From an uncultured Oscillospiraceae bacterium (GTDB lineage: Bacteria; Bacillota; Clostridia; Oscillospirales; Ruminococcaceae): a stretch of DNA of 64,000 bases. Location of the stretch: contig CAZHWR010000003.1 in assembly GCA_964536085.1 (NCBI GenBank), positions 1,540-65,539 on the forward strand, in the 5' to 3' direction. Both the position numbers and the translations under genes were made by a program. Shown here piece after piece: positions 3,695-38,358 of this stretch; positions within the stretch are counted from its first letter, which is position 1, and each line of letters starts with the position of its first letter. The notes below the pieces were generated by a model. The model had not been told where the DNA came from, searched no databases, and was given only the letters and a program-made list of their open reading frames with translations.

Positions 3695-6397
3695 ATGAAG
3701 CTGGCAAAAAAACTCGCGCTTTTTATGGCGGTGGTTATGATTGTAAGTATGCTGCCCACAGCCCTTTCAGGCTCGCTTGCAGCGGGTTTCAAGGTTCTGA
3801 ACGTCACGTCCAACAAGGTGACGGTTTATGCAGGGAGCGTTTATCAAATCAAAACCAACGGCTCGAATGTGACGTACAAGTCAAACAAAAAGAGCGTTGC
3901 AAAGGTGAGCGACAGCGGTCTTGTTACGGCGAAGAAAAAGGGCACGGCGACAATCAGAGTGACTAACGCTTCGACCGGAAAAGCCGTTAAGCTGAAAATC
4001 CGCGTAAAAAAGCCCGTGGGTTATACCGTAAGCAAAAAAAGCGGAAGCTACACCAGAACCATAAAGGTAAAAATCAAAGCTAAAAAAGGATATACGGTTT
4101 ATTACACCGTGAACGGAAAATTCAAGCTTTCAAAGAAGATTAAAAGCAGAAAATCCAAGACCATCACTGTTAAGAAAAACACTACGCTGAATCTGTACAT
4201 TAAGAAAAATTCGGATAAAGTCACTGCAAAGCAGATGAAGAAAGCAAAGGGCAAGGCGGTAAACTGCCCCGAATATCAGTATATAATCAACAGTTCAGCC
4301 GCTTCGTTGTCCGGCGTTGCGCAAAGCAGCACAAGCTCGCCTGATACCGACATAGATATTGTCGATTCGACCGAGCTTGATAATCCTGTTGTGCCAAGCG
4401 CGGATGAAGCCGATTCTTCCGGCGCCAACACTGCGGACTGGGCTCAAGACGACGCACAGGGCGCGGATACCGACGAGCTGTGGTTTGCAATCGATTCGGT
4501 TAAATATGTTGCGCTTTCGGACGATGGCGTGACCGTAACCGATGAAAACGGCGAAGAATCTACTGACTCGGGAGTGAGCATGAAGTCCGGAGTGGTTAAA
4601 ATCACCGTGCCGGGGGTTTATGTGCTCAGCGGTACTCTTACAGACGCGAGCGTTCAGGTTAAAAGCGGAGAGGGAGAATATACGCTGATTTTAAACGGAG
4701 TGGATATTTCCTGTAGTTCGACCGCGGCGTTGTATGCTACCAAAAAAGCAACAAAATTGACCGTGACGCTTGCAAATGAAACTCAAAACAGCCTTAAAGG
4801 ACCCGAGGAGTACACATTTGAGGACGGAGAGGACGAGCCGGACGCCGCTATGTTTGTTAAAAAAGAGCTGGTTATAAACGGACGCGGCTCGCTTAGCGTT
4901 ACCGACCCGAATGGTGACGCGATCAAGTGCAAGGATGCATTGAAGGTCGCACAGGCGAGTATCACAGTAAACGCAGGCGACGACGGAATAACCGGAAAGG
5001 ATTCGTTTGCCGCGAGCAATACCGCGCTTAACATAACCTCTATCGGAGACGGAATTAAAACAAATATTCAAACCGACGAATCACTCGGATATGTTGATAT
5101 AAGCGATTCGAGCGTTACGATAAATTCCTCAGGTGACGGAATACAGGCGGATACCACGGCGAAGTTTGAAAACTCCGACATTATCATCACCACTAACTAT
5201 ACTGACGCTAACGACAGCTTTAAAGGCATAAAAGCGGGCGGAGAGCTTACACTTGACGATGGTTCTGCGGTTTTGGCGGGCTTTGTGTATATAGCGAGCG
5301 GGACGTTTAAGATAAACTCGGTGGAGGACGCTATACAAAGCAAAAAGGATATGCTTATTGCAGGTGGAAAAATTACCGTTGATTCGTACAACGACGGGAT
5401 TCAGGCAAAATACAATCTTACGATTTCGGGCGACGAGACCGTAATTGACGTTACGACCCACAAAAACTCCGCATATACGTTTATAGACAGCTACAAGGGC
5501 ATTAAAGCGGGTATAAGCTCAGATGACGGGACAGTCGAGTCTGACGGTACGCTTTTGATAACCGGCGGAACGATTACGGTAGATACTACCGCAGCGGGAA
5601 TAACGAATGACAGCGGCTCTGAAAAGGGCGATGACGCTATACATTGTAACAATATTATGCGTATCGACGGCGGCACTATGACGCTGGCCGCTGGCGATGA
5701 TGCGCTTCATTCGGACAGCGAGCTTGTTATAAACGGCGGGACTATCACTGTCACTGCCTGCTATGAGGGCATCGAGAGTTATGAGATATATTTAGAGGGC
5801 GGCGAGGTCAATGTAACCTCCAGAGACGATGGCGTTAACGCGGCGGGCGGAAACGACAGTTCAGGAAGCACGGGCGAAACTAATCCGTGGCGTCCGGGCG
5901 GAACAAATCCGTCAATGTCGTCCGAGAGCAGCGGAACGCTTTATATAAACGGAGGAACGTATTATATTAACGCTTCCGGCGACGGACTTGATTCGAACGG
6001 AAGTATTTACATGACGGGCGGAAATGTTTATGTTTACGGTCCGACCTCAGGCGGAAACGGAATATTTGACTACGGCGACTCAGACAGCGTGTTCAAAAAA
6101 AGCGGCGGTCTGCTTATAGGAACCGGCACGTCTGATATGGCGGTGTACCCCACCTGTACAAACGGCGCCATGTGCAGATATACGGTAAACGGCACGGCGG
6201 GAAAACAGTGTTCAATTACCGATTCGTCGGGAACATATACCTTCACGCCGCCCAAGTCGTATTCGCTTGTTATTGTTTCCGCTCCGGGAATGACGGCGAA
6301 TTCAAGCTATACGCTCACATATAACGGTTCTTCTTCGTCAACAGCGAAAGCCGTGCAATCGGTTTCAGGAAATTCGGGCGCAAATTCCAGACGATAA
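3695..6397 (+). CDS. Secreted multidomain protein: Big_2 Ig-like domain, Fn3-associated/CHB_HEX_C-like domain, Cthe_2159-type beta-helix carbohydrate-binding region
   Basis: Signal peptide MKLAKKLALFMAVVMIVSMLP after RBS AGGGAGG. Big_2 signature SNKKSVAKVSDSGLVTAKKKGTATIRV. Repeated GDDGI/GDGIK/GDGIQ/NDGIQ/DDAIH/DDALH/YEGIE/GDGLD turns are typical of the Cthe_2159 parallel beta-helix family. Confidence 0.75.
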   Translation: MKLAKKLALFMAVVMIVSMLPTALSGSLAAGFKVLNVTSNKVTVYAGSVYQIKTNGSNVTYKSNKKSVAKVSDSGLVTAKKKGTATIRVTNASTGKAVKLKIRVKKPVGYTVSKKSGSYTRTIKVKIKAKKGYTVYYTVNGKFKLSKKIKSRKSKTITVKKNTTLNLYIKKNSDKVTAKQMKKAKGKAVNCPEYQYIINSSAASLSGVAQSSTSSPDTDIDIVDSTELDNPVVPSADEADSSGANTADWAQDDAQGADTDELWFAIDSVKYVALSDDGVTVTDENGEESTDSGVSMKSGVVKITVPGVYVLSGTLTDASVQVKSGEGEYTLILNGVDISCSSTAALYATKKATKLTVTLANETQNSLKGPEEYTFEDGEDEPDAAMFVKKELVINGRGSLSVTDPNGDAIKCKDALKVAQASITVNAGDDGITGKDSFAASNTALNITSIGDGIKTNIQTDESLGYVDISDSSVTINSSGDGIQADTTAKFENSDIIITTNYTDANDSFKGIKAGGELTLDDGSAVLAGFVYIASGTFKINSVEDAIQSKKDMLIAGGKITVDSYNDGIQAKYNLTISGDETVIDVTTHKNSAYTFIDSYKGIKAGISSDDGTVESDGTLLITGGTITVDTTAAGITNDSGSEKGDDAIHCNNIMRIDGGTMTLAAGDDALHSDSELVINGGTITVTACYEGIESYEIYLEGGEVNVTSRDDGVNAAGGNDSSGSTGETNPWRPGGTNPSMSSESSGTLYINGGTYYINASGDGLDSNGSIYMTGGNVYVYGPTSGGNGIFDYGDSDSVFKKSGGLLIGTGTSDMAVYPTCTNGAMCRYTVNGTAGKQCSITDSSGTYTFTPPKSYSLVIVSAPGMTANSSYTLTYNGSSSSTAKAVQSVSGNSGANSRR

Positions 6398-6558
6398 TTC
6401 TGTTGACACAGCCGATAAAAGCTGTATAATAAAATAAAGAAAAATAAAGACTATAGAAAATATCGGCGGGGGCTATGACGTTGTTACACAGAAAGTCATA
6501 TAATATTAAAAATCGGCGCAGAGCGGATATATCCGGCGGCGCGGTCAAAAGATGCATA

Positions 6559-7704
6559 ATGTCATTTTTATCGGCTGTGTGCGCGGGATTGCTGCTCTGT
6601 GCTTTTGTATTTACAGCCGCGGCGCAGGACTGCTCTGAAACGAGACAGGTTGAGGAGCTTGTTCCCGTGACAAAATCAGTGGGAGATGAAAAAGACGCTC
6701 AGCGGCTTTATTCGTATAATCAAAACACGGCGGTTGCCGATCCTTCGCGCAGGGGAATAGTTATTCCGGTTACGGTAAACGAGCCCGGCAGCATTAAAAT
6801 AAGCTTTTCTTCCATCAGCCTAGACCGGGCGATGAGCGTTTATATGTATATGGATTGCGAGTGTACAAACAGGCTTGCGGACAATCTGTATATCACAACT
6901 GATTCGATGGGTGAGGAAATTCACTTTTCCGCCGAAACCGCGGGGACGTATTATCTTTCATGCAGCTCGTACGCAGGGTATAGCAGGGACAGCAAATTTA
7001 TAAACGAATTTAAAATAGGCGCTGCGCTTTATCCGAGCGGGATAAAACAGGCTCCTGACGGCATTCGCGTTACATATTACCGAACAAGCCCGGACGAAAA
7101 GCATCTTTTTGAATTCAAAGCGGCAAAAACAGGCGTCGTAAGGGTTTATCTGCCATATCAAAACGGCAGTTATGTTAAAATGCTCAACGCATCTAAAAAG
7201 GCAATATCACAAACAGAGTATGTATCCGCCAACAGTGACTACAGCTTCAGGCAGGAGTTTTATGTAAAAAAAGGGAATACCTATTATCTGGAGGTAACCT
7301 CCAACGGTATTTCAGAGCATCTTCAGTCGATAAAGGTATCGTATAGGTCAGTAAAGGCGAGAGGCGGCGCGAAAAGATCCTCCGCTTCGTTGATCAGAAC
7401 GAGGAAAAAAGCAATGGGAATGCTGGTAAACGGAGGAAAACGCACCGTTTGGTACAAGGCCAAAATTCCTGTCGGGAAAAAGCTCAGATTAACTGTGAAA
7501 GGTAAAATAAACGGCGGTTTAACGGTCAGCGTTTACGATAAAAACGGAAAAAACGTTACAAAAGGAAAGAAAGCTTCGGTCAGCCGACGCGCCGTTGTAA
7601 AGACAAAAAGAGCCATGGACAAAAAGTCTGTTTATTACATAAAGGTTGAAAAAGCAAACCGATACAGCTCCGGGGAATTTACATTACGGGTAAGGGCAGC
7701 GTGA
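6559..7704 (+). CDS. Secreted protein with three PPC-like beta-sandwich repeats and a basic C-terminal region
   Basis: Signal peptide MSFLSAVCAGLLLCAFVFTAAAQ. Recurring GTYYLSCSS / GNTYYLEVTS / SVYYIKVEK motifs resemble pre-peptidase C-terminal domains. The start is uncertain: the ORF is open from 6475. Confidence 0.5.
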   Translation: MSFLSAVCAGLLLCAFVFTAAAQDCSETRQVEELVPVTKSVGDEKDAQRLYSYNQNTAVADPSRRGIVIPVTVNEPGSIKISFSSISLDRAMSVYMYMDCECTNRLADNLYITTDSMGEEIHFSAETAGTYYLSCSSYAGYSRDSKFINEFKIGAALYPSGIKQAPDGIRVTYYRTSPDEKHLFEFKAAKTGVVRVYLPYQNGSYVKMLNASKKAISQTEYVSANSDYSFRQEFYVKKGNTYYLEVTSNGISEHLQSIKVSYRSVKARGGAKRSSASLIRTRKKAMGMLVNGGKRTVWYKAKIPVGKKLRLTVKGKINGGLTVSVYDKNGKNVTKGKKASVSRRAVVKTKRAMDKKSVYYIKVEKANRYSSGEFTLRVRAA

Positions 7705-7713
7705 CGGCAAAAT

Positions 7714-7748
7714 AAAAAACAGCGGACGACCGGCCGCTGTTTTTTTAT
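7714..7748. terminator. Bidirectional terminator between convergent genes
   Basis: Stem ACAGCGG / CCGCTGT flanked by an A-run and a T-run. Confidence 0.75.
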
Positions 7749-7752
7749 TTAT

Positions 7753-9156
7753 CTATTTTCTTTTTCTTTTTATCGGTTTTGAAGCCGAACGGCTTTTCGG
7801 CCTTGAAAGCTGTTTGCGTTTTTGCGGGCGGCGCAAGCGGGTTTTTTTGAGCTTTTTGTTGTACAGTATGACAAACGCAAAATACAAAATCACAAGCAAA
7901 ATGACGACCGCGATGATTATTATGAATATCGTTGAGGTAAGAACGTTTTTAACCGAATTCAGAGCCATTAAAAATATGTTTGAATCAACATCTTCCGAGG
8001 CCACCAGGTCGACTGTCCCTATCACCTCATCGGCAAGCTTTAATGTGAGCGTTCCCACCTTGTCGCCCGCTTTTACGGGGGCGTCTATGCTGTCTGGAAT
8101 ATCGGCGATCTGCTGAACGCTTGTCGGGTCTGCATCGGTTGGTAGCAGTGCGGAAACATCATTCGCGGGAACCAAAAGCAGATGGTCGGTGTCGGATGAA
8201 AGGTTGACCTTAATATCCGAAACTGAGTTTTTCTTTTCGACCACGGTCTGAACCGAGTAATTGTCAAACGCCCAGTCATAAAGATTCTGAGTGTCTATAA
8301 AGCACAAATTATCGGAAATAGTGGCGCCGTTTTCATAAACGGTCGGCGCGCCCATGGTTATCAGTATATAGTTATAGCCGTTTTTTGAGCCGAGCGAAAC
8401 AAGATTTTTTCCCGATTCATCTGTAGTGCCGGTTTTTATGCCCTTGATATACGGGTAATAATAGCTGCTGCTGCTCGTCATCATCGTATTGGTGTGATAA
8501 ATATACCTTGCTTCGCTGTGCTTGTTGGTTTTTGACATTTTATATTCGCGGGTAGTCGATATTTTTTTGAACAGCGGAAGCGTCAGCGCATATTCTGTTA
8601 TCAAATACATATCGTAAGCGCTTGTTACCTGTTCGGGATCGTGCAGTCCGTGAGCGTTGACGTAGTTCGTATGGGTGCAGCCGAGTTCCTTGGCTTTTTC
8701 ATTCATCTGTTCCACAAAATCGGGGATGCTGCCGTTACCCATATAATCCGCAACGATACTGGCCGCTTCGCATGCGCTCGGAAGCAGCATTGCGTAAAGC
8801 AGGTCGAGCATGTTGACCTTTTCACCTACCATGATACCCGCGTTTGAAGCGGTACCTCCGCTTTCTTCATAAAGCTCATCGAAAATATACTGCGGGGCTG
8901 TCACAGTGATGCTTTTGGGATCGGAATATTTCTCCAAGACCAAAATGGCCACCATTATTTTGACAAAAGAGGCCGGATAAAGCTCTTTGTTTTCGTTTTG
9001 CTTGTAAACCACCGTGCCAGTATCGGTGTTTACCATATATACCGCCTGGCTGTTTACTGTGCTTTTGCTGGGCTTGAAAGCGGCGGATACCGAAAATGAG
9101 CTTCCAAAAACCGCGGCGGCGGCGAAAATACAAATGATATTCCTTAATTTTCTCAT
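7753..9156 (-). CDS. D-alanyl-D-alanine carboxypeptidase (S11 penicillin-binding protein) with C-terminal TM anchor and basic tail
   Basis: Signal peptide, SxxK motif (ASFVKIM) and KTG motif (IKTGTT). C-terminal helix IFIIIIAVVILLVILYFAFVILY followed by a K/R-rich tail. Confidence 0.85.
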   Translation of the reverse strand: MRKLRNIICIFAAAAVFGSSFSVSAAFKPSKSTVNSQAVYMVNTDTGTVVYKQNENKELYPASFVKIMVAILVLEKYSDPKSITVTAPQYIFDELYEESGGTASNAGIMVGEKVNMLDLLYAMLLPSACEAASIVADYMGNGSIPDFVEQMNEKAKELGCTHTNYVNAHGLHDPEQVTSAYDMYLITEYALTLPLFKKISTTREYKMSKTNKHSEARYIYHTNTMMTSSSSYYYPYIKGIKTGTTDESGKNLVSLGSKNGYNYILITMGAPTVYENGATISDNLCFIDTQNLYDWAFDNYSVQTVVEKKNSVSDIKVNLSSDTDHLLLVPANDVSALLPTDADPTSVQQIADIPDSIDAPVKAGDKVGTLTLKLADEVIGTVDLVASEDVDSNIFLMALNSVKNVLTSTIFIIIIAVVILLVILYFAFVILYNKKLKKTRLRRPQKRKQLSRPKSRSASKPIKRKRK

Positions 9157-24707: not shown

Positions 24708-25975
24708 ATGATACTGCGTGGGAATTGCTGTTTAATAAATATGATATTTTGAAGCATATTGATGAGACAGGACGGTTTTAAATATCCGCCCGACAAACTA
24801 AAGAAGTGCGCGAACCGCGCTTAATTACCAAGTTTGACCACATTATCAATCTGCCGCGGATATTTTCGGATAACGGACTTTCTATTCTTCCCGTAACCTG
24901 CGGAGAATATGTTATTTCCCATTTTGATGCGTATCACAAATTTGAGCCGGACAACGCCCCTATTACCAGAGCGCCGCTGCCCTCATACATACAGAGTTTA
25001 GACAGTAACAACATACCAAGCGAAGCGATTGCACTAAACTGTGCTGTTGCGTCGGGTATTATCGCGGACTTTTTGGGTGACGAAGAAATTGTCTCAACAG
25101 TTTCCGGCAGAATGGGTTCGGGTTCGTTCGATTTTCATATCAATAACCTGAAAAGTAAATCGTCTTGTTGCGTTACCGTAAGTAATTCACAGATTGAAAT
25201 TGATGCGGCATATGAGGGTATACGCAGTCTTGCTTTATTTGAAGCAAAGCGCGATCTTTCCGAGGATTTTTTGGTGCGGCAGCTTTATTATCCGTACAGA
25301 GTATGGCAGAGCCGTATAACAAAACCTGTCAGACCGCTGTTTATGATTTACTCAAACGGTATCTATCATATTTATGAGTATGAGTTTCAGGAACCAAACA
25401 ATTATAATTCTATTGCCATTATACAACAACGCAACTATACAGTTGAAGACACTGCCATTACAGCGGATGATATACAACAGGTTTTGTATTCAGTTGTTTG
25501 CAAAGGTGAACCCAGTTTGCCGTTTCCGCAGGCTGACAAATTTGAACGTGTTATTAACATTTGTGAATTGCTTAATGTTCAAGATTTAAGTCGTAATGAA
25601 GTGACTGAGCGTTATGCTTTTGACGCACGACAGACAAATTATTATACTGATGCAGCGCAGTATTTAGGGCTTATAGAAAAAGAGCGGGAAAATGGCAGCC
25701 CACTATATAAACTTTCTGACAAGGGGCGTACAATCCTAAATATGGGATATAAGCAAAGACAACTAGCATTCTGCGCTTGTATTTTGGCGCATAGCGCATT
25801 TTCTGACACGCTAAAAAAATATTTTGAAACAGGTGTTATGCCGCTCAAAAATGAAATTATACAGACTATGAAAAAATCCAACCTATATAATGTCAATAGC
25901 GATAGCACCTTTGAGCGGCGTTCTTCTACCATAAAAGGTTGGGTAAACTGGATTGTCGAGTTGATTAACGAATAG
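24682..25975 (+). pseudogene. PD-(D/E)XK nuclease-like protein with C-terminal winged-helix region, N-terminus disrupted (frameshift plus in-frame TAA)
   Basis: MRLSLPELK (frame 1) shifts in an A-run near 24706 to NDTAWELLFNKYDILKHIDETGRF, then a TAA at 24779-24781, then ISARQTKEVREPRLITKFDH... in the long ORF 24806-25975. A candidate nuclease motif is IEID...(n)...FEAK. A GTG at 24806 could still give a truncated product. Confidence 0.5.
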
Positions 25976-28871: not shown

Positions 28872-30074
28872 ATGAATATATCTTTTTCACCGCCGGACAT
28901 ATCCGGGCTTGAAATAGACGAGGTGGCAAAAGCTCTGCGCTCGGGCTGGATAACAACGGGCGCGCGCACAAAGGATTTTGAAAGAAAGATTGCGGAGTAT
29001 ATCGGCGCGCCGCGCGCGGTGTGCTTAAGCTCCGCGACCGCGGCGCTTGAAACCACGCTCAGGATATTTGGAATAGGCGAGGGCGACGAGGTTATTACCA
29101 CGGCGTACACATATACGGCGTCCGCCAGCGTTATCGCGCATGTCGGCGCGAAAATAGTGCTTTGCGACACTTATCCCGATTCGTTTGAAATGAATTACGA
29201 ACGTATGGCGGAGCTTATTACCGAAAGGACAAAGGCGGTGATACCCGTTGATATCGGAGGAAAGCTGTGCTGCTATGACAAGATTTTCAGTGCGGTCAGC
29301 AGCAAAAAGGCACTTTTCAAGCCTGATACAGAACTGCAAAAGCTTTTTTCACGCGCTGTAGTGATCGCGGATTCGGCGCACGGCTTCGGCGCTCAAAAAA
29401 ACGGCTTGAAAAGCGGGAGTTTTGCCGATTTTACGGTGTTCAGCTTTCACGCTGTGAAAAATCTCACAACCGGCGAGGGCGGCGCGGTGGTGTGGAAGTC
29501 CCGTGAGGAGCTTGACGACGATATGCTTTATAAAGAATATATGCTCTATTCGCTCCACGGTCAGAGCAAGGATGCGTTTTCCAAGGACAAGCCCGGAGCG
29601 TGGGAGTATGATATAATTCATCTCGGTTATAAATGCAATATGACTGATATCGCCGCCGCGATAGGGTTAAAACAGCTTGAACGGTACGGCGATATGCTTG
29701 CGCGCCGAAAAGAATTGATAAATCGGTATGACCGTGCGTTTTTACGCGGCGGGGTCGTGAGTCTGGAGCATTTTCCCGATTCCGATTCAAGTTCGAGCGG
29801 ACATTTGTATATGCTGAGGATATTAAAGGCTGATGAATGCGGGCGAAATGCTGTCATAGAACGTTTGGCTGAAAAGGGAATAGCGGCTAATGTGCACTAT
29901 AAGCCGCTTCCGATGCTCACGGCGTATAGGAAGCTTGGATTTGATATTTCTGATTTTCCGAATGCGTACGGCTTATATAAAAATGAGATATCGCTTCCGC
30001 TTAACACTGTTTTGACAGATGAACAGGCGGATTATATTATTGAGACTGTGAGCGGAGAACTGAAAAAATTTTAA
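28872..30074 (+). CDS. DegT/DnrJ/EryC1/StrS-family PLP-dependent sugar aminotransferase
   Basis: WITTGARTKDFE, DSAHGFGA, and FSFHAVKNLTTGEGG containing the PLP lysine. Confidence 0.88.
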   Translation: MNISFSPPDISGLEIDEVAKALRSGWITTGARTKDFERKIAEYIGAPRAVCLSSATAALETTLRIFGIGEGDEVITTAYTYTASASVIAHVGAKIVLCDTYPDSFEMNYERMAELITERTKAVIPVDIGGKLCCYDKIFSAVSSKKALFKPDTELQKLFSRAVVIADSAHGFGAQKNGLKSGSFADFTVFSFHAVKNLTTGEGGAVVWKSREELDDDMLYKEYMLYSLHGQSKDAFSKDKPGAWEYDIIHLGYKCNMTDIAAAIGLKQLERYGDMLARRKELINRYDRAFLRGGVVSLEHFPDSDSSSSGHLYMLRILKADECGRNAVIERLAEKGIAANVHYKPLPMLTAYRKLGFDISDFPNAYGLYKNEISLPLNTVLTDEQADYIIETVSGELKKF

Positions 30075-31245: not shown

Positions 31246-33282
31246 TTAATCTCTCATCGTCAATATCTTAAGCGGGTCGTACCGCAGGACAGATATTATC
31301 GCAACGCATCCCGCGGCGAGCGTCAATATAACGCCCACGAGCATAAGCTGTGCCACCACCTTGAAGTTGGTCGCCGAGGTAACGGAGGTTATGTAATCAG
31401 CTTGCTGATTTCCGAAGCCTCCTTTTGAAAAACCGCTTTCAGAGCCTCCGCGTCCAAAGTTTCGTTCCTGATTTTCCTGTGTGGTTTGGGAGGTGGAGAT
31501 TTGATTTTCAAGCAGGGCGTTGGTTATCGGCACCGAAGCAGTCGCACCGATTCCGGTTCCTATTATAATAGCGATAAATGTTACGATGAAGATCTCGCTT
31601 AAAAACTGAAGCGAGATTTTGCACTTTTTCATTCCGATAGCGGCGAGCACGCCTATTTCGTATTTGCGTTCACGAATATTGAATATATTCAGAACAATAA
31701 GTACTATAGCGCCTATACCTAAAACAATAAGCAAAAAGTATGTTGCAAATGTTCCGAGTGTTTCGAGCGGAGCTATTTTGCTGTCGAACGAGGAAACATC
31801 GGTCGATGAGATGGTGTAGTCGTCCGTAAGACCGAGCTCTGTCGCCTGTTCTTCAAATTTCTCGTAGTCGTCAAGACCCGCAAACACATATGTGCCGCTT
31901 TCCTGCTCACGAAGCGCGGTAGAGGATGTTCTTCCTGTGTCCTCTTCGGTTTCAACAGTTTCGTTTTTGATAGACGCATTTGTAATCTTTTTTAGCGCAG
32001 GATAGCTCATATAAATCTGGTTAGCGGAATCCTGCGAGGTGGAAAAGCCCTGCATTTGGGTGCTGTCGGTTGCGGACGCTTCGGAGTCGGTGTAGATGCC
32101 GACGATCTCGAGCTTGATTACTTCGTCCTCATCATTTGGGTTTACAAGCTTTATGGCTTTTCCCACCTTGAGATTGTTATATGTGGCAAGCTCGCTGCTT
32201 ATGATGCAGACCTTATCTTTGGATTCTACGTCGAAAACCTCTCCGTCGGTAATTGTTTTTGTACCTTCGGTGAAGTCGGTCATTGCGGAAAGAGAGCTGT
32301 ATCCGACAACGGTAAAGTCGCCTTGCATTCCCATAATACCGGCCGCAAAAGCGCTGCGATCAATGTTCCCTCCGCCTATGTCGCCGACAATTGCACCGTC
32401 TGTAATGCCTGTGTCTGGAGTTGTGCCGTTTGCACTGCCGCCGAAGCCCGAGCCGCCGTTACTTGCACCGCCGCTTTTGCCGTTACCGCTGCCGCCGCTT
32501 CTGCCGTTGCCGCCTGCAAAGCCGTCTGAGCCGTCGGACGGCGGCGTATTGCCGCCTGAATTACCGGGAGCGGACGGTCTGCCGCTTCCGGACGAGTTTC
32601 TTTCGGATGACGTGCTTTCGGAGGATGTGTTTGCTTCAGAGGAAGCGGTTTCCTCCGACTGCGTCTGTTCGCTTGATGTTTCACTTTCTGACGATACCGA
32701 TTCCTCAGAGCTTGCGGCCTCATCGGCTGTTTCGGTGCGGAGAACAGCTCCTGCGGCAGTTTCGGTGTTTGTTGCCATATTTGTGACGGAAACTCCTCCG
32801 TATGCCGATGTGGACGCTTTACTTGCAGTGTTCGAAGAGCTTGAGCCGGAGCCGCTTGAAGATGAACTCGACGAGCTTGTGCCGTCATCGTCATCGCTGT
32901 CTTGTTCGATTCCGGTTGTATCGACCGGTTCAAGCTTGCCGCCGGCGTTCATAGCGGTGGTGAGGGTGTAGTAAAAATCCTCTACGCATTCCGCTTCGGC
33001 GTATTTTTGTAAATCGTCGATAGTGAGCGATTCAATGTTCTGCATGTTTTCCATCATTTCAGAACGGTCGGAAGCGTTGTTCATTATTTTTTCTCTGTTC
33101 ACCGATATCTGGGCGGTGATTTTAATGCCTGAAAGCGCCTGTTCGCGCGCGGTAGCCGATGCCTGTTTAATCGAAAGCGCAACGCAGCTCGACGTTGCTA
33201 TTGCAAGCACGATTATGCCGATTAAAATATTCCGCCCTTTTGACCGAATAATGTTTCGCAGTGCATTTTTTAAAATATACAT
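31246..33282 (-). CDS. ABC transporter permease, FtsX/MacB type, with ~165-aa Ser/Gly/Thr/Glu-rich low-complexity insert in the extracytoplasmic domain
   Basis: N-terminal TM (RNILIGIIVLAIATSSCVAL), a large extracytoplasmic domain and a C-terminal FtsX 3-TM bundle. Low-complexity run roughly at residues 127-290. Confidence 0.85.
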   Translation of the reverse strand: MYILKNALRNIIRSKGRNILIGIIVLAIATSSCVALSIKQASATAREQALSGIKITAQISVNREKIMNNASDRSEMMENMQNIESLTIDDLQKYAEAECVEDFYYTLTTAMNAGGKLEPVDTTGIEQDSDDDDGTSSSSSSSSGSGSSSSNTASKASTSAYGGVSVTNMATNTETAAGAVLRTETADEAASSEESVSSESETSSEQTQSEETASSEANTSSESTSSERNSSGSGRPSAPGNSGGNTPPSDGSDGFAGGNGRSGGSGNGKSGGASNGGSGFGGSANGTTPDTGITDGAIVGDIGGGNIDRSAFAAGIMGMQGDFTVVGYSSLSAMTDFTEGTKTITDGEVFDVESKDKVCIISSELATYNNLKVGKAIKLVNPNDEDEVIKLEIVGIYTDSEASATDSTQMQGFSTSQDSANQIYMSYPALKKITNASIKNETVETEEDTGRTSSTALREQESGTYVFAGLDDYEKFEEQATELGLTDDYTISSTDVSSFDSKIAPLETLGTFATYFLLIVLGIGAIVLIVLNIFNIRERKYEIGVLAAIGMKKCKISLQFLSEIFIVTFIAIIIGTGIGATASVPITNALLENQISTSQTTQENQERNFGRGGSESGFSKGGFGNQQADYITSVTSATNFKVVAQLMLVGVILTLAAGCVAIISVLRYDPLKILTMRD

Positions 33283-33983: not shown

Positions 33984-34105
33984 ATCGGTTTGCTCTGACA
34001 ATTATAAAGCGGAGTCCGGCAAAGAGTTTGTTTATATAATGTAACCTAATGAACAGCCCCGTCATAAAATAATGTGTACGCAAACCATCGCGTTTGGAGG
34101 AAAGT

Positions 34106-34498
34106 ATGATGGATACGACTGTTTTGATTGCCGGAGGGGATAAACGGCAGATTTATGTGGCGAGACTGCTTGCGGCGGATTATAAGGTTTATGCAATCGG
34201 TCTTGAGGATTCTTTCGGCGACGTTATCAATATAAATTCTCTTTGCGAGCTTAGCGTTAAGCCCGACATTATCATTTTCCCGATTTTGTCGAGCGTGGAT
34301 AATGAGCATGTAAACATGCCGCTGTCGGATATCACGCTCAGAATAGAGGACGTTTTGGAATACGCAAAGCATTCTGCCGTTGTTTTAGCCGGGAAGCCGT
34401 GCGCAACGCTTTGCGAGCTTTGCGGAAGAAAAAATCTTAAGCTTATAGATTATTTTGAGCGTGAAGAACTCGCGGTTTTAAACGCAGTACCTACTGCG
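34106..34498 (+). CDS. dpaA: Dipicolinate synthase subunit A, 5' segment (gene split by intervening element)
   Basis: MMDTTVLIAGGDKRQIYVARLL...FEREELAVLNAVPTA matches the DpaA/SpoVFA N-terminal domain. RBS GGAGG sits 5 nt upstream. Beyond 34498 the ORF runs into unrelated element sequence. Confidence 0.9.
34482..34498 (+). repeat. Left copy of 17-bp direct repeat (attL core) ACGCAGTACCTACTGCG
   Basis: Identical to 37127-37143. Internally an inverted repeat, CGCAGTA-CC-TACTGCG. Confidence 0.9.
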
Positions 34499-35360
34499 TT
34501 CGTTTTTTTGCATGTGCCGTGCGGGTTTGAGCCTGTAAAAAAAGCTTTCTTGACACTATCGCCTCATGATGATTATTTATAATTATCCTGTTTTGAGTAT
34601 TTGTGCGGCGTGTATGGTTTAAATAGTCCACTGTTTCCTGTTTTCGGCAGACAAGGTCGCCGCAGTATTTTTCATTTTTCAGCATTTTGCGTATGGTTTC
34701 GGTTTTCCATTCACGTTCCGGGCGGCTGATGCGTTCGGCTATCTGACGCGGATTTAAGCCTTCGTAAACGCGCAGTCTGAAAATTTCCTTAACGGTCTTC
34801 GCCTGCTCTTCGTTGACTGTGAGCACGCCGTTTTTAAGGTCATAGCCGTATACGCCGTTTCCAAAGACAACGCCGCGCTTCATGCTTTGAAGCTGACCCC
34901 ATTTAACCCGCTCGGAGGTTTTACGGCTCTCCTCCTGAGCTATGGTAGAGAGTATGGAAAGCCTCAGCTCGCCGTCTGAGCTTAAGGTATTGATACCGTC
35001 GGACAAAAACAGCACACCGACGCCATGCTGCTTTAAAAGCCGTGTGTATGTAAGCGCGTCCACGGTGTTTCGGGCAAAGCGCGAGACCTCCTTTGTTATG
35101 ATAAGGTCGATTTCACCGCTGAGAGCGCAACCTATCATCTTTTTGAACGCCGTACGTTTTTTGATACTGGTTCCGGTTATTCCGCTGTCGGCGAATATTT
35201 CCGTCAGCCGCCAGTCGGGATTTTTACTAATGCAGTCGTAAAAATATCTTTTCTGCGCCTCAAGCGAATTTGCCTGGTCGGATTTGTCGGTCGAAACGCG
35301 GCAGTAGGCGCAAACGTTAAGCATGGGCGCACAGTCCGATCGGTTTTTCACATAGATCAC
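34491..35360 (-). CDS. Serine recombinase (resolvase catalytic domain plus 'recombinase' domain, with no zinc-ribbon/coiled-coil domain)
   Basis: YCRVSTDKSDQANSLEAQ (catalytic Ser), DSGITGTS, VSRFARN and AQEESRKTSERVKWG. The recombinase domain is ..YGYDL..VNEEQAKTVKEIF...W..ETIRKMLKNEKYCGD...HHEAIVSRKLFLQAQ. The stop TAG lies inside the 17-bp core. The start may instead be at 35351 or 35324. Confidence 0.85.
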   Translation of the reverse strand: MIYVKNRSDCAPMLNVCAYCRVSTDKSDQANSLEAQKRYFYDCISKNPDWRLTEIFADSGITGTSIKKRTAFKKMIGCALSGEIDLIITKEVSRFARNTVDALTYTRLLKQHGVGVLFLSDGINTLSSDGELRLSILSTIAQEESRKTSERVKWGQLQSMKRGVVFGNGVYGYDLKNGVLTVNEEQAKTVKEIFRLRVYEGLNPRQIAERISRPEREWKTETIRKMLKNEKYCGDLVCRKQETVDYLNHTRRTNTQNRIIINNHHEAIVSRKLFLQAQTRTAHAKKRTQ

Positions 35361-35445
35361 CTTTTTGCACGCGCCGACAACGCGCTTTTTGATAAATTTA
35401 TATTTTTTTTAAACGCTTTATATTCGCCCGCCGCGTATTTTGTAT

Positions 35446-35474
35446 TTGACATATGCGCGCTATGATTATAAAAT
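35446..35474 (+). promoter_or_regulatory. SigA-type promoter for the flippase gene, TTGACA-N17-TAAAAT
   Basis: TTGACA at 35446-35451, a 17-nt spacer and TAAAAT at 35469-35474, about 38 nt upstream of the ATG at 35512. Confidence 0.5.
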
Positions 35475-35511
35475 ATATGCAGTATTTACGGCAAAGGACG
35501 GCGGCGTTGAT

Positions 35512-37023
35512 ATGAGATTCAGAAGAAGCGCTTATAATTTAATAGTCGGCGTTTTGTGCCAGCTTGTTATTCTTGCGCTGGGGCTTGTTATTCCGCGGCT
35601 GTTTTTGGTGAACTTCGGCTCGGAAACAAACGGTCTTATTACGTCGATAAACGATATATTCGTTTATATAGCCCTGCTGGAAGCGGGAATCGGCGCGGCG
35701 ACTGTGCAGGCGCTTTACAAGCCTATTGTAAACGGGGATAAAAACAAGATAAACGAAATACTTTCAGCTACGTCATTTTACTATAAGCGCACGGGCGTTA
35801 TATATTTTATTGTGCTTTTGCTGTTTGCGTTTGTCTACCCGCTTATGCTGGATACGTCGATAGATTATAAAACCGTTGTGCTGGTCATCTTTTTCACCGG
35901 TATAGGAAACGTTATCAATTTTTTCTTTCAGGGCAAGTATAAGCAGCTGCTTTTGGCGGAGGGAAAGGCTTATATCATAACGATAATATCCTCCGCGGCT
36001 AATATTATTGCCAGCGTTTCAAAAATCGTTCTTATACTTTCGGGATTTGATATAGTTGCGGTGCAGACGGTGTATTTTGTACTGTCGATGTTTCAGATGG
36101 CGTTTTTTGAAGCGTACATCAGGCGCAACTACAAATGGCTCAATTTAAAGGCGACCCCGGATTACGGCGCAATATCCCAGAAAAACGCGGTCCTTGTTCA
36201 TCAAATCAGCGGAATCGTTTTCAAGAACACCGACGTTGTTATACTTTCTCTTGTCTATGATTTGAAGATGGCGAGCGTATATATAATGTACAACCTTATC
36301 TTCAATGTCATGGAAAATTTTATTACAACGATCAACGACAGTGTTGTAGCGGCGCTTGGACAGGAGTATAACAGGGATAAAAACAGCTATGCGAAGCTTT
36401 ACGATTTTTACGAGCTGGGTTATTTTGCAATGTGTTTTATTATATGTACGGTCGTTTATGCGATAATAATCCCGTTTATGCGGCTTTACACGGCGGGAGT
36501 CACCGATATCAACTATTTTATCGACTATCTGCCGCTTGCATTTGTCATAATGAAATTCTTAAATTGGTGCAGGACTCCGTCTGCATACACAATAAATTTT
36601 GCGGGTAAATTTATCGAAACAAGAAAAAAGGCGCTCACGGAAGCGGTCATCAACATAGCCGTTTCGCTCGTTTTAGTAAAGCCTCTTGGTATTTTCGGCG
36701 TTGTGGCTGGGTCGGCGGCGGCGTTTTTATACAGCGCGGTTTATTCGATATGGTATGTTAACGCAAAGCTTATTGACTTAAACTATAAAAAAACCGTGTT
36801 CAGATGGGTTGTTTTTATTGCGGCGTTTTTCGCGTTTTCATTCGTGCTGTCGCATATAAGCGTGGAAATAAGCGGTTATTTTACGCTTGTTTTGTTTGCG
36901 GCGGCGGTCGGTGTAGCGGCTGTGATTTACTACGCCGCGGTGTGCATGATATTCAGCCGCAAAACTTGTGTAAACTCCGTTAAAGCGGCGTTACAGATTT
37001 TAAAAAATCGAAAATATAGATAA
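35512..37023 (+). CDS. Oligosaccharide/polysaccharide flippase (Wzx-like, MOP superfamily)
   Basis: 503 aa with about 12-14 TM helices. The N-terminal block IPRLFLVNFGSETNGLITSINDIFVYIALLEAGIGAATVQALYKP is typical of EPS/teichoic Wzx flippases. Confidence 0.75.
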   Translation: MRFRRSAYNLIVGVLCQLVILALGLVIPRLFLVNFGSETNGLITSINDIFVYIALLEAGIGAATVQALYKPIVNGDKNKINEILSATSFYYKRTGVIYFIVLLLFAFVYPLMLDTSIDYKTVVLVIFFTGIGNVINFFFQGKYKQLLLAEGKAYIITIISSAANIIASVSKIVLILSGFDIVAVQTVYFVLSMFQMAFFEAYIRRNYKWLNLKATPDYGAISQKNAVLVHQISGIVFKNTDVVILSLVYDLKMASVYIMYNLIFNVMENFITTINDSVVAALGQEYNRDKNSYAKLYDFYELGYFAMCFIICTVVYAIIIPFMRLYTAGVTDINYFIDYLPLAFVIMKFLNWCRTPSAYTINFAGKFIETRKKALTEAVINIAVSLVLVKPLGIFGVVAGSAAAFLYSAVYSIWYVNAKLIDLNYKKTVFRWVVFIAAFFAFSFVLSHISVEISGYFTLVLFAAAVGVAAVIYYAAVCMIFSRKTCVNSVKAALQILKNRKYR

Positions 37024-37058
37024 AAGCCTTATTTTGATGACATAAAATTGAATATTTT

Positions 37059-37101
37059 GCGCCCGCCGCGAATCAAATTTTGATTCGCGGCGGGCTTTTT
37101 G
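37059..37101 (+). terminator. Rho-independent terminator of the flippase cassette (15-bp stem)
   Basis: GCCCGCCGCGAATCA / TGATTCGCGGCGGGC followed by TTTTT, 26 bp before the right repeat. Confidence 0.85.
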
Positions 37102-37126
37102 CATATAAGACTGTTTGACTTTTCTG

Positions 37127-37143
37127 ACGCAGTACCTACTGCG
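37127..37143 (+). repeat. Right copy of 17-bp direct repeat (attR core) ACGCAGTACCTACTGCG
   Basis: Identical to 34482-34498. Confidence 0.9.
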
Positions 37144-37623
37144 GAGGGAGCGATCGCGATAGCCGTAGATCGTTTGCCCTTCACATTGTATGGTTCGGAA
37201 TGCATAGTCACCGGATTTGGAAGGATAGCCAAGGTGCTTGTTAGGCTTTTGACCGCGTTCGGCGCGCATGTAACGGTTTCGGTCAGAAAGCAGAGCGATC
37301 TTGCATGGGCGAAAATTTACGGCGCGGATGCGGTTAAAATATCGGGGCTTCCGAAAGCCGCAAAAAACGCGGACGTTATCTTCAACACCGTTCCCGCGGT
37401 ATTGTTTGACAAGCGCACTCTGCAGGTTTTAAAGAAAGACTGTCTTGTTATCGATCTTGCCTCGAAGCCGGGAGGAGTGGATTTCGACGCGGCCAAGGAG
37501 CTTTCGTTAAACACGGTGTGGGCGTTGTCGCTCCCCGGAAAATCCGCTCCTGTCAGCGCGGGCGCGATTATAAAAGACACGATCGGCAATATATTGTCGG
37601 AGTTGGATGAAGAAGAAATCTAA
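37144..37623 (+). CDS. dpaA: Dipicolinate synthase subunit A, 3' segment
   Basis: EGAIAIAVDRLPFTLYGSECIVTGFGRIAKVLVRLL (NAD-binding GxGxxA) ...IDLASKPGGVDF. In frame with the 5' segment across the repeat. No start codon or RBS of its own at the homology boundary. Confidence 0.9.
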   Translation, partial: EGAIAIAVDRLPFTLYGSECIVTGFGRIAKVLVRLLTAFGAHVTVSVRKQSDLAWAKIYGADAVKISGLPKAAKNADVIFNTVPAVLFDKRTLQVLKKDCLVIDLASKPGGVDFDAAKELSLNTVWALSLPGKSAPVSAGAIIKDTIGNILSELDEEEI

Positions 37624-37788
37624 AAAACAGGTCGAACACAGACGGACTTTGGCTTGCCCGTTGGCGGGGCTGTTCTGTGCTTTTAAGCTTTCGTCCGCGC
37701 GATTTGTTGTCTGCGGCGACGTTTGACCCAACTGCTCGGCGCAGGCCGCATTTGCGTTATTTGTGAAAGAAGGGAATGGTTATACAAA

Positions 37789-38358
37789 ATGGCAAAAACA
37801 AGGCTTGGATTTGCACTTTGCGGCTCGTTTTGCACCTTCAGCCGGGCAATATCTGAAATGGAGAAGCTGAGCGAGCGGTATGATATATATCCGATAATGT
37901 CGCAAAACGCGGCACAGACCGATACCCGTTTCGGAAAGGCGCACGAGCATATAGACAGGATAGAATCCATATGCGGTAAAAAAATAATAAGCGATATCTG
38001 CTCAGCGGAGCCTATAGGTCCGAAGGATATGATAGATATCCTTTTAATAGCACCCTGCACGGGAAATACTCTTGCAAAGCTTGCAAATTCTGTGACAGAC
38101 ACATCGGTAACGATGGCGGCAAAATCGCATTTAAGAGTTCAAAAGCCGGTCGTAGTCGCGCTTGCGAGCAACGACAGCCTTGCCGGAACAGCCAAAAATT
38201 TAGGGAATCTTTTGAATTATAAAAATTATTTCTTTGTTCCGTTTGGGCAGGATAATCCGGTTAAAAAACCGTTTTCTATTGTGGCGGATTTTGAAAAAAT
38301 TGATGAAACTTTGCAATTTGCGCTAAAAAAAGAACAAATTCAACCGATATTAATATGA
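37789..38358 (+). CDS. dpaB: Dipicolinate synthase subunit B (flavoprotein)
   Basis: MAKTRLGFALCGSFCTF...LLIAPCTGNTLAKLANSVTDTSVTMAAKSHLR matches DpaB/SpoVFB. Confidence 0.88.
   Translation: MAKTRLGFALCGSFCTFSRAISEMEKLSERYDIYPIMSQNAAQTDTRFGKAHEHIDRIESICGKKIISDICSAEPIGPKDMIDILLIAPCTGNTLAKLANSVTDTSVTMAAKSHLRVQKPVVVALASNDSLAGTAKNLGNLLNYKNYFFVPFGQDNPVKKPFSIVADFEKIDETLQFALKKEQIQPILI

Follow-up and report, generated by a model that had tools for sequence, protein, structure and literature searches.

How can a sporulation gene serve its host when its two halves lie 2.6 kb apart? The question is raised by dpaA, the gene for dipicolinate synthase subunit A, in a 64,000 nucleotide stretch of DNA from an uncultured Oscillospiraceae bacterium (contig CAZHWR010000003.1 of assembly GCA_964536085.1; this whole stretch is referred to as the window, and positions are counted within it). 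The insert that divides dpaA carries a short serine recombinase gene and a membrane protein gene, and we propose, with a probability of about 0.68, that it is a domesticated, immobile gene-intervening element that its own recombinase excises in the mother cell. We are highly confident that this is a real and ancient element kept by selection, and its excision during sporulation to restore dpaA, with or without a helper protein, seems to us quite likely; that the short recombinase would perform the excision alone is an even call.

Carriers of the split gene

The known carriers of this element are the source of the window and four Logan read-set assemblies. One of the latter (L044) contains the same version of the element as the window, recovered from an independent read set; L001 and L002 are near-identical contigs of a second lineage, and L003 represents a third. 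The common locus order is DpaA_N, recombinase, a protein of ~503 aa, the C-terminal half of DpaA, DpaB, a ROK regulator and the ATP synthase operon. The nearest uninterrupted dpaA ortholog, in L045, has the same dpaA-dpaB-ROK synteny as the carriers. All of the sources are metagenome-type assemblies, which could suggest that misassembly or a chimera produced the split, but the same junctions recur in five independent assemblies (four read sets and the NCBI record) and the divergence among them is evolutionarily coherent, and we give this explanation almost no weight. Searches for further carriers with the cargo protein or its alignment in GTDB species genomes and JGI metagenomes returned only ordinary flippase genes (26–49% identity), none of them adjoining dpaA or a recombinase.

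The two halves of dpaA

The 5′ segment of dpaA (34106–34498, forward strand) holds codons 1–131, encodes the DpaA_N domain and ends in NAVPTA (...REELAVLNAVPTA). The 3′ segment (37144–37623, forward strand) holds codons 132–290, begins with EGAIAIAV (EGAIAIAVDRLPF...), encodes the NAD-binding domain and runs to a stop codon. It is followed by an intact dpaB gene (37789–38358, forward strand) for dipicolinate synthase subunit B, which scores 255 bits against NF006161 (cut-off 156). Removal in silico of 2,645 bp, comprising one copy of a flanking 17 bp repeat and the 2,628 bp insert, restores a 290 aa DpaA in frame; an initial reading of the locus made from the DNA alone (the sequence-only reading) had described this split and rejoining, and its coordinates are exact. 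Residues 2–286 of the joined protein match positions 3–292 of 297 in NF006162 (NCBIfam DpsA) in one unbroken stretch at 282.2 bits (cut-off 261), and only the joined sequence passes this full-length equivalog test; against TIGR02853 it scores 222.5 bits, which is under the cut-off of 319.65. The Pfam domains of the joined protein are DpaA_N (residues 6–117) and then a Rossmann NAD domain of the 2-Hacid_dh_C type (144–237), with the break point falling between them.

In the window, L001 and L003 both halves of dpaA, as well as dpaB, are free of internal stop codons. The ratio of nonsynonymous to synonymous divergence (dN/dS, from Nei-Gojobori counts, quoted throughout for the window against L001 unless stated) is 0.15 for the 5′ half, 0.12 for the 3′ half and 0.07 for dpaB, which bears out the earlier suggestion that the three segments are open and under continued selection. 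The comparison with orthologs that had been advised as a check finds dpaA uninterrupted at the same codon in L045 and interrupted in the closer relatives. In L001 and L003 dpaB starts right at the dpaA stop codon, and it therefore has no promoter of its own there. The window differs in having a 165 bp spacer (37624–37788) with a small GC hairpin (37653–37668), an arrangement absent from L001 and L003; this spacer could hold a secondary dpaB promoter in the window lineage.

One departure from the intact state is seen in L002, where the 3′ half of dpaA shifts frame at about its codon 110 (about 982–985 of that contig); the near-identical L001 is intact. It is probably an error in a low-coverage read-set assembly; alternatively, it could reflect real decay in one population.

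Recombination sites

Two exact copies of the 17 bp repeat ACGCAGTACCTACTGCG flank the insert, and we refer to them as the attL core (34482–34498) and the attR core (37127–37143). Identity between the copies ends at both edges of the 17 bp. The direct repeat and the 2,628 bp that it flanks had been reported correctly from the DNA alone, and to this we add that the repeat is palindromic: it can be read as ACGCAGTA-CC-TACTGCG, with 7 bp inverted arms flanking a non-palindromic CC, and in the reconstructed attP the symmetry extends to 8+2+8. An arm-CC-arm core of this kind is what a serine recombinase dimer that crosses over with a fixed polarity would be expected to use. When the 17-mer is searched against the 64 kb with up to three mismatches there are four matches, two of them the att sites and the other two the images of these near-palindromes on the reverse strand; by chance 0.10 matches are expected, and four were reached in none of 100 shuffles.

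The insertion codon is identical in all carriers, and in-frame joining through the shared core also restores dpaA in L001 and L003. In the window and in L001/L002 the 17-mer is identical at both junctions, even though the neighbouring insert DNA is too diverged to align. The L003 copies are ATGCAGTACCTACTGTG and CTGCAATACCTACTGCA, which have only TACCTACTG in common; only a crossover inside TACCTACTG restores the conserved PTAEGA motif in this genome, and this places the crossover at or near the central CC. The four 4-fold-degenerate codons of the core (GCA GTA CCT ACT) are the same in all three carrier lineages, against 8 of 32 conserved third positions in the flanks. In L045 the same peptide is encoded as GCT GTT CCC ACG, with all four codons differing and no palindrome. 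This codon usage suggests that the recombination sites are under selection.

We also note that the attL palindrome, read on the sense strand of dpaA together with CGTTTTTTTG (34481–34510), resembles an intrinsic terminator with an 8 bp stem. The T-run is missing in L001 and L003 and the resemblance may be incidental; in the window it would end transcription of the shortened dpaA message at the junction. Scans for Rfam families and tRNAs gave no matches in the window, and the insertion is not tRNA-associated.

Cargo gene and transcription signals

The insert holds two conserved genes, one for the recombinase and one for a flippase-like cargo protein. The sequence-only reading was right that the insert bears a recombinase, and it overlooked the cargo gene, which is under selection (dN/dS 0.08), together with its promoter. 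The cargo gene (35512–37023, forward strand) encodes a 503 aa multi-pass membrane protein resembling oligosaccharide flippases (Wzx/MOP). It has no match in Pfam or NCBIfam at E<0.01; among its 643 homologs, those named at source are called oligosaccharide flippase, lipopolysaccharide biosynthesis protein or O-antigen export protein, the first and last of these names occurring at 41–49% identity, and PF01943 is present in some of them. A σA-type promoter (TTGACA-17-TAAAAT, 11 of 12 consensus positions) lies upstream at 35446–35474 on the forward strand, and is kept in L001 (11/12) and L003 (TTTACA-17-TATAAT, 11/12). The gene is followed by a strong intrinsic terminator (37061–37095, forward strand) with a 16 bp stem and a T-run, an equivalent of which is present in L003; to judge from its position, it would insulate the dpaA 3′ segment. 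A gene for a DegT/DnrJ/EryC1-type sugar aminotransferase is located ~4 kb upstream of dpaA (28872–30074), and adjoins dpaA in L001, L002 and L003. The aminotransferase and the cargo flippase may serve one surface-polysaccharide pathway, which, if so, would explain the strong selection on the cargo.

The dpaA-dpaB operon has a candidate σK-type promoter, AC-N17-CATAAAATA, at 34044–34071 on the forward strand. The pattern AC-N17-CATANNNTA has two matches in the window, one of which is this one upstream of dpaA, and a σK-type motif is also found 60–70 nt 5′ of dpaA in L001, L003 and the uninterrupted L045. For the recombinase gene we found no σK-type promoter. There is a candidate σE-like promoter, GAATA-N17-ATATAAAT, at 35396–35425 on the reverse strand; the pattern GAATA-N17-ATAYAWWT has this single match in the window and none in 42 unrelated loci, and it occurs at the equivalent place in L001, L002 and L044, with the −10 element of L003 fitting at 7 of 8 positions. 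As the pattern was defined post hoc, we regard the motif as suggestive. In the interrupted state the antisense recombinase gene, the attL hairpin with its T-run and the cargo terminator all separate the σK-type promoter from the dpaA 3′ half and dpaB.

These signals bear on the explanation that the split is permanent, with DpaA made as two polypeptides that assemble with DpaB and the recombinase kept for an unrelated reason. The break at the boundary between DpaA_N and the NAD domain would suit such an arrangement, as would purifying selection on both halves, and gene callers do predict open reading frames (ORFs) for the 3′ half. However, no start codon with a Shine-Dalgarno sequence precedes the 3′ half in any lineage, the only candidates being TTG codons inside terminator stems, and what lies upstream is a strong terminator and no promoter. 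The 5′ half reads into non-conserved tails of 7–43 aa in the interrupted carriers. A permanent split also leaves unexplained the in-frame junction, the conservation of the att core on the non-coding side and the synonymous constraint, and we consider it improbable.

A truncated large serine recombinase

The recombinase gene occupies 34491–35351 or 34491–35360 on the reverse strand and its product is 277–289 aa long depending on the start chosen, with 286 aa from a GTG at 35351 (ribosome binding site AGGTGA) and 277 aa from an ATG at 35324. It matches PF00239 (Resolvase) at 104 bits, with invariant YCRVST and SRFARN motifs, and PF07508 (Recombinase) at 69.9 bits over model positions 1–98 of 102, but there is no match to the PF13408 zinc-ribbon/coiled-coil domain. 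The serine recombinase of the sequence-only reading is therefore confirmed by its Resolvase and Recombinase domains, with the qualification that it is not a typical large serine recombinase (LSR), since the half with the zinc-ribbon domain (ZD) and coiled coil is missing. Most of the 7,805 relatives detected are 450–505 aa in length and have PF13408, and the protein aligns only to the first ~280–287 positions of the CcrA/B/C and XisF models (442–558 residues). Homology to full-length relatives stops at position 34530, after which there are 13 unrelated codons and then a TAG within the 17 bp repeat, and the 3′ end of the gene thus lies inside attL.

Completion of the gene on an excised circle was considered and rejected. 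The in-frame TAG in the repeat is present in both the integrated and the excised forms, and the other end of the element holds the terminator and the cargo gene.

What is retained appears to be an intact catalytic and recombinase-domain unit. R18, S20 and the RFARN motif are invariant across 72 relatives, and an AlphaFold2 (AF2) model (pLDDT 86.7) fits LSR-att complexes (e.g. 9dxd and 9dxh) over ~290 of their 535 residues, which cover the catalytic and recombinase domains together with helix E. The protein is not a small serine recombinase, having a C-terminal PF07508 domain instead of a short helix-turn-helix (HTH) and 277–289 aa against about 180–200 aa, and a tree places it inside the LSRs. 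By these measures it is an LSR by descent and incomplete by architecture. Its homologs in the other lineages form a series at the C-terminus: the L003 protein is the longest at 368 aa (with a 4-Cys remnant and no coiled coil), that of the window has 289 aa, and that of L001 has 272 aa, its gene being followed by 70 bp of non-coding DNA. The shortening never reaches the recombinase domain in any of the three, and we take the series as deletional streamlining that selection has apparently halted at the minimal functional unit. We read the protein as a domesticated, excision-only, resolvase-like derivative of an LSR, whose predicted behaviour would match that published for integrases engineered to lack the coiled coil (ΔCC; see below). 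No conserved small ORF that could be a recombination directionality factor (RDF) was found in the element across the three lineages.

Age, inheritance and selection

The closest homologs of the recombinase, P0002 (75% identical, 272 aa) and P0003 (68%, 368 aa), have the same architecture as that in the window. Between the three lineages synonymous change has reached saturation (pS 0.59–0.90), and recombinase identities among the carriers (74/66/66%) track those of the flanking ROK gene (72/61/59%), from which it follows that the element predates the split of the lineages and has co-diverged with the chromosome. Comparison of these loci indicates an ancient element that is vertically inherited and under purifying selection. 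No uninterrupted DpaA of more than 56% identity was found among 5.8 billion proteins, whereas the carriers are 60–75% identical to one another; as far as sampled, the whole clade appears to be split. The names on the nearest DpaA homologs place this clade in the Oscillospiraceae-type Clostridia.

A further explanation is that the insertion is decaying, with dpaA a pseudogene, the recombinase a relic, and a host that either does not sporulate or obtains dipicolinic acid (DPA) by another route such as EtfA. The recombinase is indeed truncated at its C-terminus, and further so in L001, the L002 frameshift lies in the dpaA 3′ half, and dpaAB is dispensable in some clostridia (10.1101/2022.02.25.481979). 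These points are outweighed by the low dN/dS of dpaA, dpaB and the recombinase (0.07–0.15, the recombinase itself at 0.14) despite saturated synonymous divergence, by reading frames free of stops in all three lineages, by the conserved att cores and σK-type promoter, and by an intact SpoIIE gene near the dpaA locus of the window. The frameshift occurs in a 5.9 kb raw-read assembly with an intact near-identical sister; further decay of dpaA or dpaB in relatives with the same split was the pattern that the sequence-only reading had named as evidence against regulated rejoining. We therefore regard decay as very improbable, slightly more so than a permanent split.

Short relatives in cotJC

The family of the recombinase is found mostly with another late gene of the mother cell, cotJC. 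Close relatives of the recombinase that also lack the ZD (287–306 aa) split this gene, which encodes a spore coat protein of the Mn-catalase type, at one DIGTEE codon in several unrelated Clostridia. These are P0007 in L004 (element at 4788–9081) and its ortholog P0115 in L046 (5162–6224), P0040 in L005/L006 (4808–10324) and P0060 in L007 (7301–10174). Each of the short recombinase genes ends at an att junction. Where both ends are visible (L004, L005/L006 and L007) the elements are ~2.1–4.9 kb, and their cargo is varied: L004 has ADH-YaaD-SpoU methylase genes, L005 an FHA protein as well as one of 1025 aa, and L007 a pair of small ORFs. Cores of only 5–10 bp are shared at these junctions, where we found no long exact repeats; the 17 bp identity is thus special to the dpaA element. 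Between L004 and L046 the dN/dS of the ZD-less recombinase is 0.16 at a dS of 0.8. Some other short recombinase entries in the databases are probably truncations at contig ends (e.g. P0099 next to P0031) and were left out.

A single clade of short recombinases was considered and rejected, as a neighbour-joining tree scatters the short forms among full-length ones, which indicates that the ZD was lost repeatedly. Full-length relatives adjoin the C-terminal fragment of cotJC in larger elements (e.g. P0016, 489 aa, and P0067, 496 aa; loci at L017 9200–11470, L018 5213–7483 and L019 8383–11491). Directly upstream of full-length recombinases there is an ORF of 56–67 aa (L017 9693–9896 and L019 9834–10004), and the two have the motif ...E(Q/E)C..(I/L)EK(R/Q)N in common. 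A role as directionality factors is possible for these small proteins, of which tblastn detected no counterpart in the short-recombinase loci, the dpaA element included. A separate observation concerns L007, whose junctions have on the element side a perfect 14 bp inverted repeat (agtatttccgatgc ... gcatcggaaatact) at ~9–22 bp from a GGGAC core. These are the outer-arm positions normally contacted by the ZD, which the L007 recombinase lacks, and the repeat may reflect either a recent truncation or a recombinase domain that reaches further than assumed.

Proposed excision and reconstitution of dpaA

We propose the following course of events. In vegetative cells and the forespore the insert would separate the σK-type promoter and codons 1–131 from codons 132–290 and dpaB. 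In this germ-line state dipicolinate synthase could not be made, while the cargo flippase would be expressed from its own σA-type promoter. In the mother cell the short recombinase would be expressed, probably from the σE-like promoter, a timing that we infer, and would bind the four near-identical half-sites (xCGCAGTA) of the two 17 bp palindromic cores. Strand exchange at the central CC dinucleotide would then release the 2,645 bp segment as a circle and join dpaA in frame (...NAVPT|AEGA...), behind its promoter and ahead of dpaB. The predicted rejoined junction is ...TTTTAAACGCAGTACCTACTGCGGAGGGAGC..., with the empty-site sequence TTTTAAACGCAGTACCTACTGCGGAGGGAGCG, and the predicted circle junction is ...TTCTGACGCAGTACCTACTGCGTTCG..., or as a longer sequence CTTTTCTGACGCAGTACCTACTGCGTTCGTTTTT. 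The retention of the element is best explained by selection on its flippase gene, the one with the lower dN/dS of the two that it carries. Such selection would hold the element in place, and its retention forces that of a working excision system; the need for DPA would keep the recombinase and its sites functional.

The zinc-ribbon/coiled-coil module normally gives serine integrases their discrimination between attP and attB, synapsis in trans and RDF-dependent directionality. Loss of the coiled coil has been studied in the Listeria innocua (LI) integrase, whose ΔCC form needs no RDF to recombine sites on one molecule in any pairing, attL x attR included, and does not carry out intermolecular integration, making it an 'unregulated resolvase' (PMC3783163, Rutherford et al. 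2013). The promiscuity of the ΔCC enzyme was confirmed, at low efficiency, by Chen et al. (2023; PMC10754689). An enzyme lacking both the ZD and the coiled coil may behave in the same manner, deleting in cis without an RDF and not integrating in trans, and this would explain the missing RDF gene, the identical attB and attP cores, the strictly vertical inheritance and the confinement to a single clade.

Several points weigh against this proposal. In the only case tested, the LI integrase cut before the ZD (residues 1–264) binds att sites ~25-fold more weakly (PMC3783163), and removal of the coiled coil abolishes the activity of the phiC31 integrase (PMC10754689); the published cases would therefore not seem to establish that a ZD-less enzyme is sufficient. 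Rejoined DpaA was not found in the collection of 5.8 billion proteins, nor were attB or attP junctions in viral contigs. The promoter assignments are consensus matches, with the σE-like pattern imperfect in L003 besides being post hoc; diverged lineages for comparison number only three; and from purifying selection we learn that the recombinase is functional, but not what its function is. The regulated reconstitution put forward in the sequence-only reading is thus supported by comparison, through selection, the att cores, the σK-type promoter and the lack of a 3′ start, while excision itself is what we infer from these, no junction having been found in the collections searched.

The main alternative is that excision is real and a full-length LSR paralog or host factor encoded elsewhere supplies binding or synapsis, perhaps in a mixed tetramer with the short protein as a subunit or regulator. 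The ~25-fold loss of binding noted above speaks for a helper, Firmicute genomes often have many COG1961 recombinases (10.1101/2022.02.25.481979), and of this genome only 64 kb is visible. The window, in contrast, has no other serine recombinase or zinc-ribbon fragment by tblastn, and the short gene is selected like host genes with every catalytic residue kept. Independent loss of the ZD in the cotJC elements of unrelated hosts is also hard to square with a specific partner each time, and the compact, identical sites with their inner-arm palindromes would suit a protein that binds through the recombinase domain only. On balance a helper in trans seems unlikely, and excision by the element's own recombinase is the explanation we prefer.

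Neighbouring genes

Other genes near the locus include one for an FtsX-family ABC permease of 678 aa (31246–33282, reverse strand), in which an extracellular loop has a ~200 aa low-complexity insert rich in Ser, Gly, Thr and Glu; the strand opposite this insert yields long spurious ORFs. L003 has a 681 aa FtsX-family ortholog beside dpaA, with N- and C-terminal residues identical to those of the protein in the window. A 389 aa protein (24806–25975) that consists wholly of DUF6996, DUF6997 and DUF7226 is encoded between an EF-G-like gene and spoIIE.

Comparison with known systems

If dpaA is reconstituted as proposed, it would join the sporulation genes under programmed excision, a class that includes skin/sigK, SPbeta/spsM, vfbin/spoVFB, vrin/spoVR, gin/gerE and yin/yabG (PMC4191935, PMC5595907, PMC5025042, PMC10747680), and both subunits of dipicolinate synthase would then be targets, as dpaB is interrupted by vfbin. 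The sequence-only reading was unsure whether so small an element in dpaA had been described. The size has a precedent, as Galperin et al. reported two-gene skin elements down to 2.6 kb, as well as skin-like ones in spoIIID and, in Laceyella sacchari, in cotJC (10.1101/2022.02.25.481979), and neither small size nor the targeting of cotJC is thus new. No report of an element splitting dpaA/spoVFA was found in the literature, and nothing on natural ZD-less recombinases in such elements, in searches that covered few subscription-journal papers.

The locus has several wider consequences. A gene-intervening element can persist, integrated in its host and vertically inherited, across family-level divergence, and need not be a recent prophage remnant. 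The recombinase amounts to a natural truncation experiment, in which selection has kept an LSR lacking the domain to which site discrimination, synapsis and directionality are attributed; should the 286 aa protein work alone on 17–18 bp sites, it would be natural confirmation of the 'unregulated resolvase' behaviour of the engineered ΔCC protein and a very compact excision tool that requires no directionality factor. Annotation of such loci as two dpaA fragments or pseudogenes could misclassify their hosts as unable to make DPA. More tentatively, and at somewhat less than even odds, the ZD-less LSR derivatives of about 270–305 aa may constitute a recurrent, selected 'excision-only' class that has arisen repeatedly in domesticated sporulation-gene elements (dpaA, cotJC) and needs neither coiled coil nor RDF, working at compact sites (an 18 bp palindrome in the case of dpaA) as minimal developmental resolvases in elements eroded to this minimal unit. 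Were this so, the catalytic and recombinase domains would make up a self-sufficient recombinase, of which the dpaA locus would be the cleanest natural example.

Among recombinases, the closest functional counterpart is the ΔCC form of the LI/A118-type integrase, an LSR without its directionality module for which deletion in cis between attL and attR without an RDF is the behaviour proposed for the window enzyme. The engineered protein keeps its zinc ribbon, whereas the window enzyme lacks the whole ZD and that of L003 keeps the 4-Cys remnant; for the LI ΔZD construct the 25-fold weaker DNA binding is reported and recombination is not. Small serine recombinases (γδ/Tn3 resolvase, Hin/Gin) similarly have a catalytic domain with one compact DNA-binding domain and act on dyad sites in cis, and the N-terminal fold matches. 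However, the window protein has PF07508 (~100 aa) in place of an HTH of ~40 aa and nests within the LSRs, and no accessory site or enhancer is evident. XisF of the fdxN element in cyanobacterial heterocysts is likewise a serine recombinase acting on a developmentally excised insert in a gene of a terminally differentiated cell. It belongs to another phylum and another developmental programme and is a full-length protein of 465 aa, and the window recombinase scores only 82 bits against the NCBIfam XisF model, far under the cut-off of 375.

The strongest likeness is to the sporulation elements themselves. As with vfbin in spoVFB (dpaB) of Bacillus weihenstephanensis KBAB4, the insert is in a late mother-cell sporulation gene, and in the same operon. 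In common with skin, SPbeta, vfbin and gin it has a recombinase gene at one edge, short shared cores and an excision, here predicted, that restores the reading frame (PMC4191935, PMC5595907, PMC5025042). The minimal skin elements are similar to it in size and gene count and have a recombinase of the same COG1961 SpoIVCA-like family, and cotJC, one of the targets in the Galperin survey, is also that of the window recombinase's closest relatives; the survey reports no truncated SpoIVCA-like recombinase and no dpaA case (10.1101/2022.02.25.481979). The characterised members of the class (among them skin/SpoIVCA, SPbeta/SprA-SprB and gin/GirC-GirX) all keep the ZD/coiled-coil half, GirC being 58 kDa, and gin has a 9 bp core consensus in place of the identical, palindromic 17 bp cores at dpaA (PMC5595907). 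The dpaA element also has no RDF candidate and no phage genes, and is anciently vertical and not strain-specific. To judge from the loci compared here, it appears to follow the same logic and to use the same recombinase lineage as the known class, and to differ from it in its target, its truncated enzyme, the lack of an RDF, its palindromic sites and its persistence at the family level.

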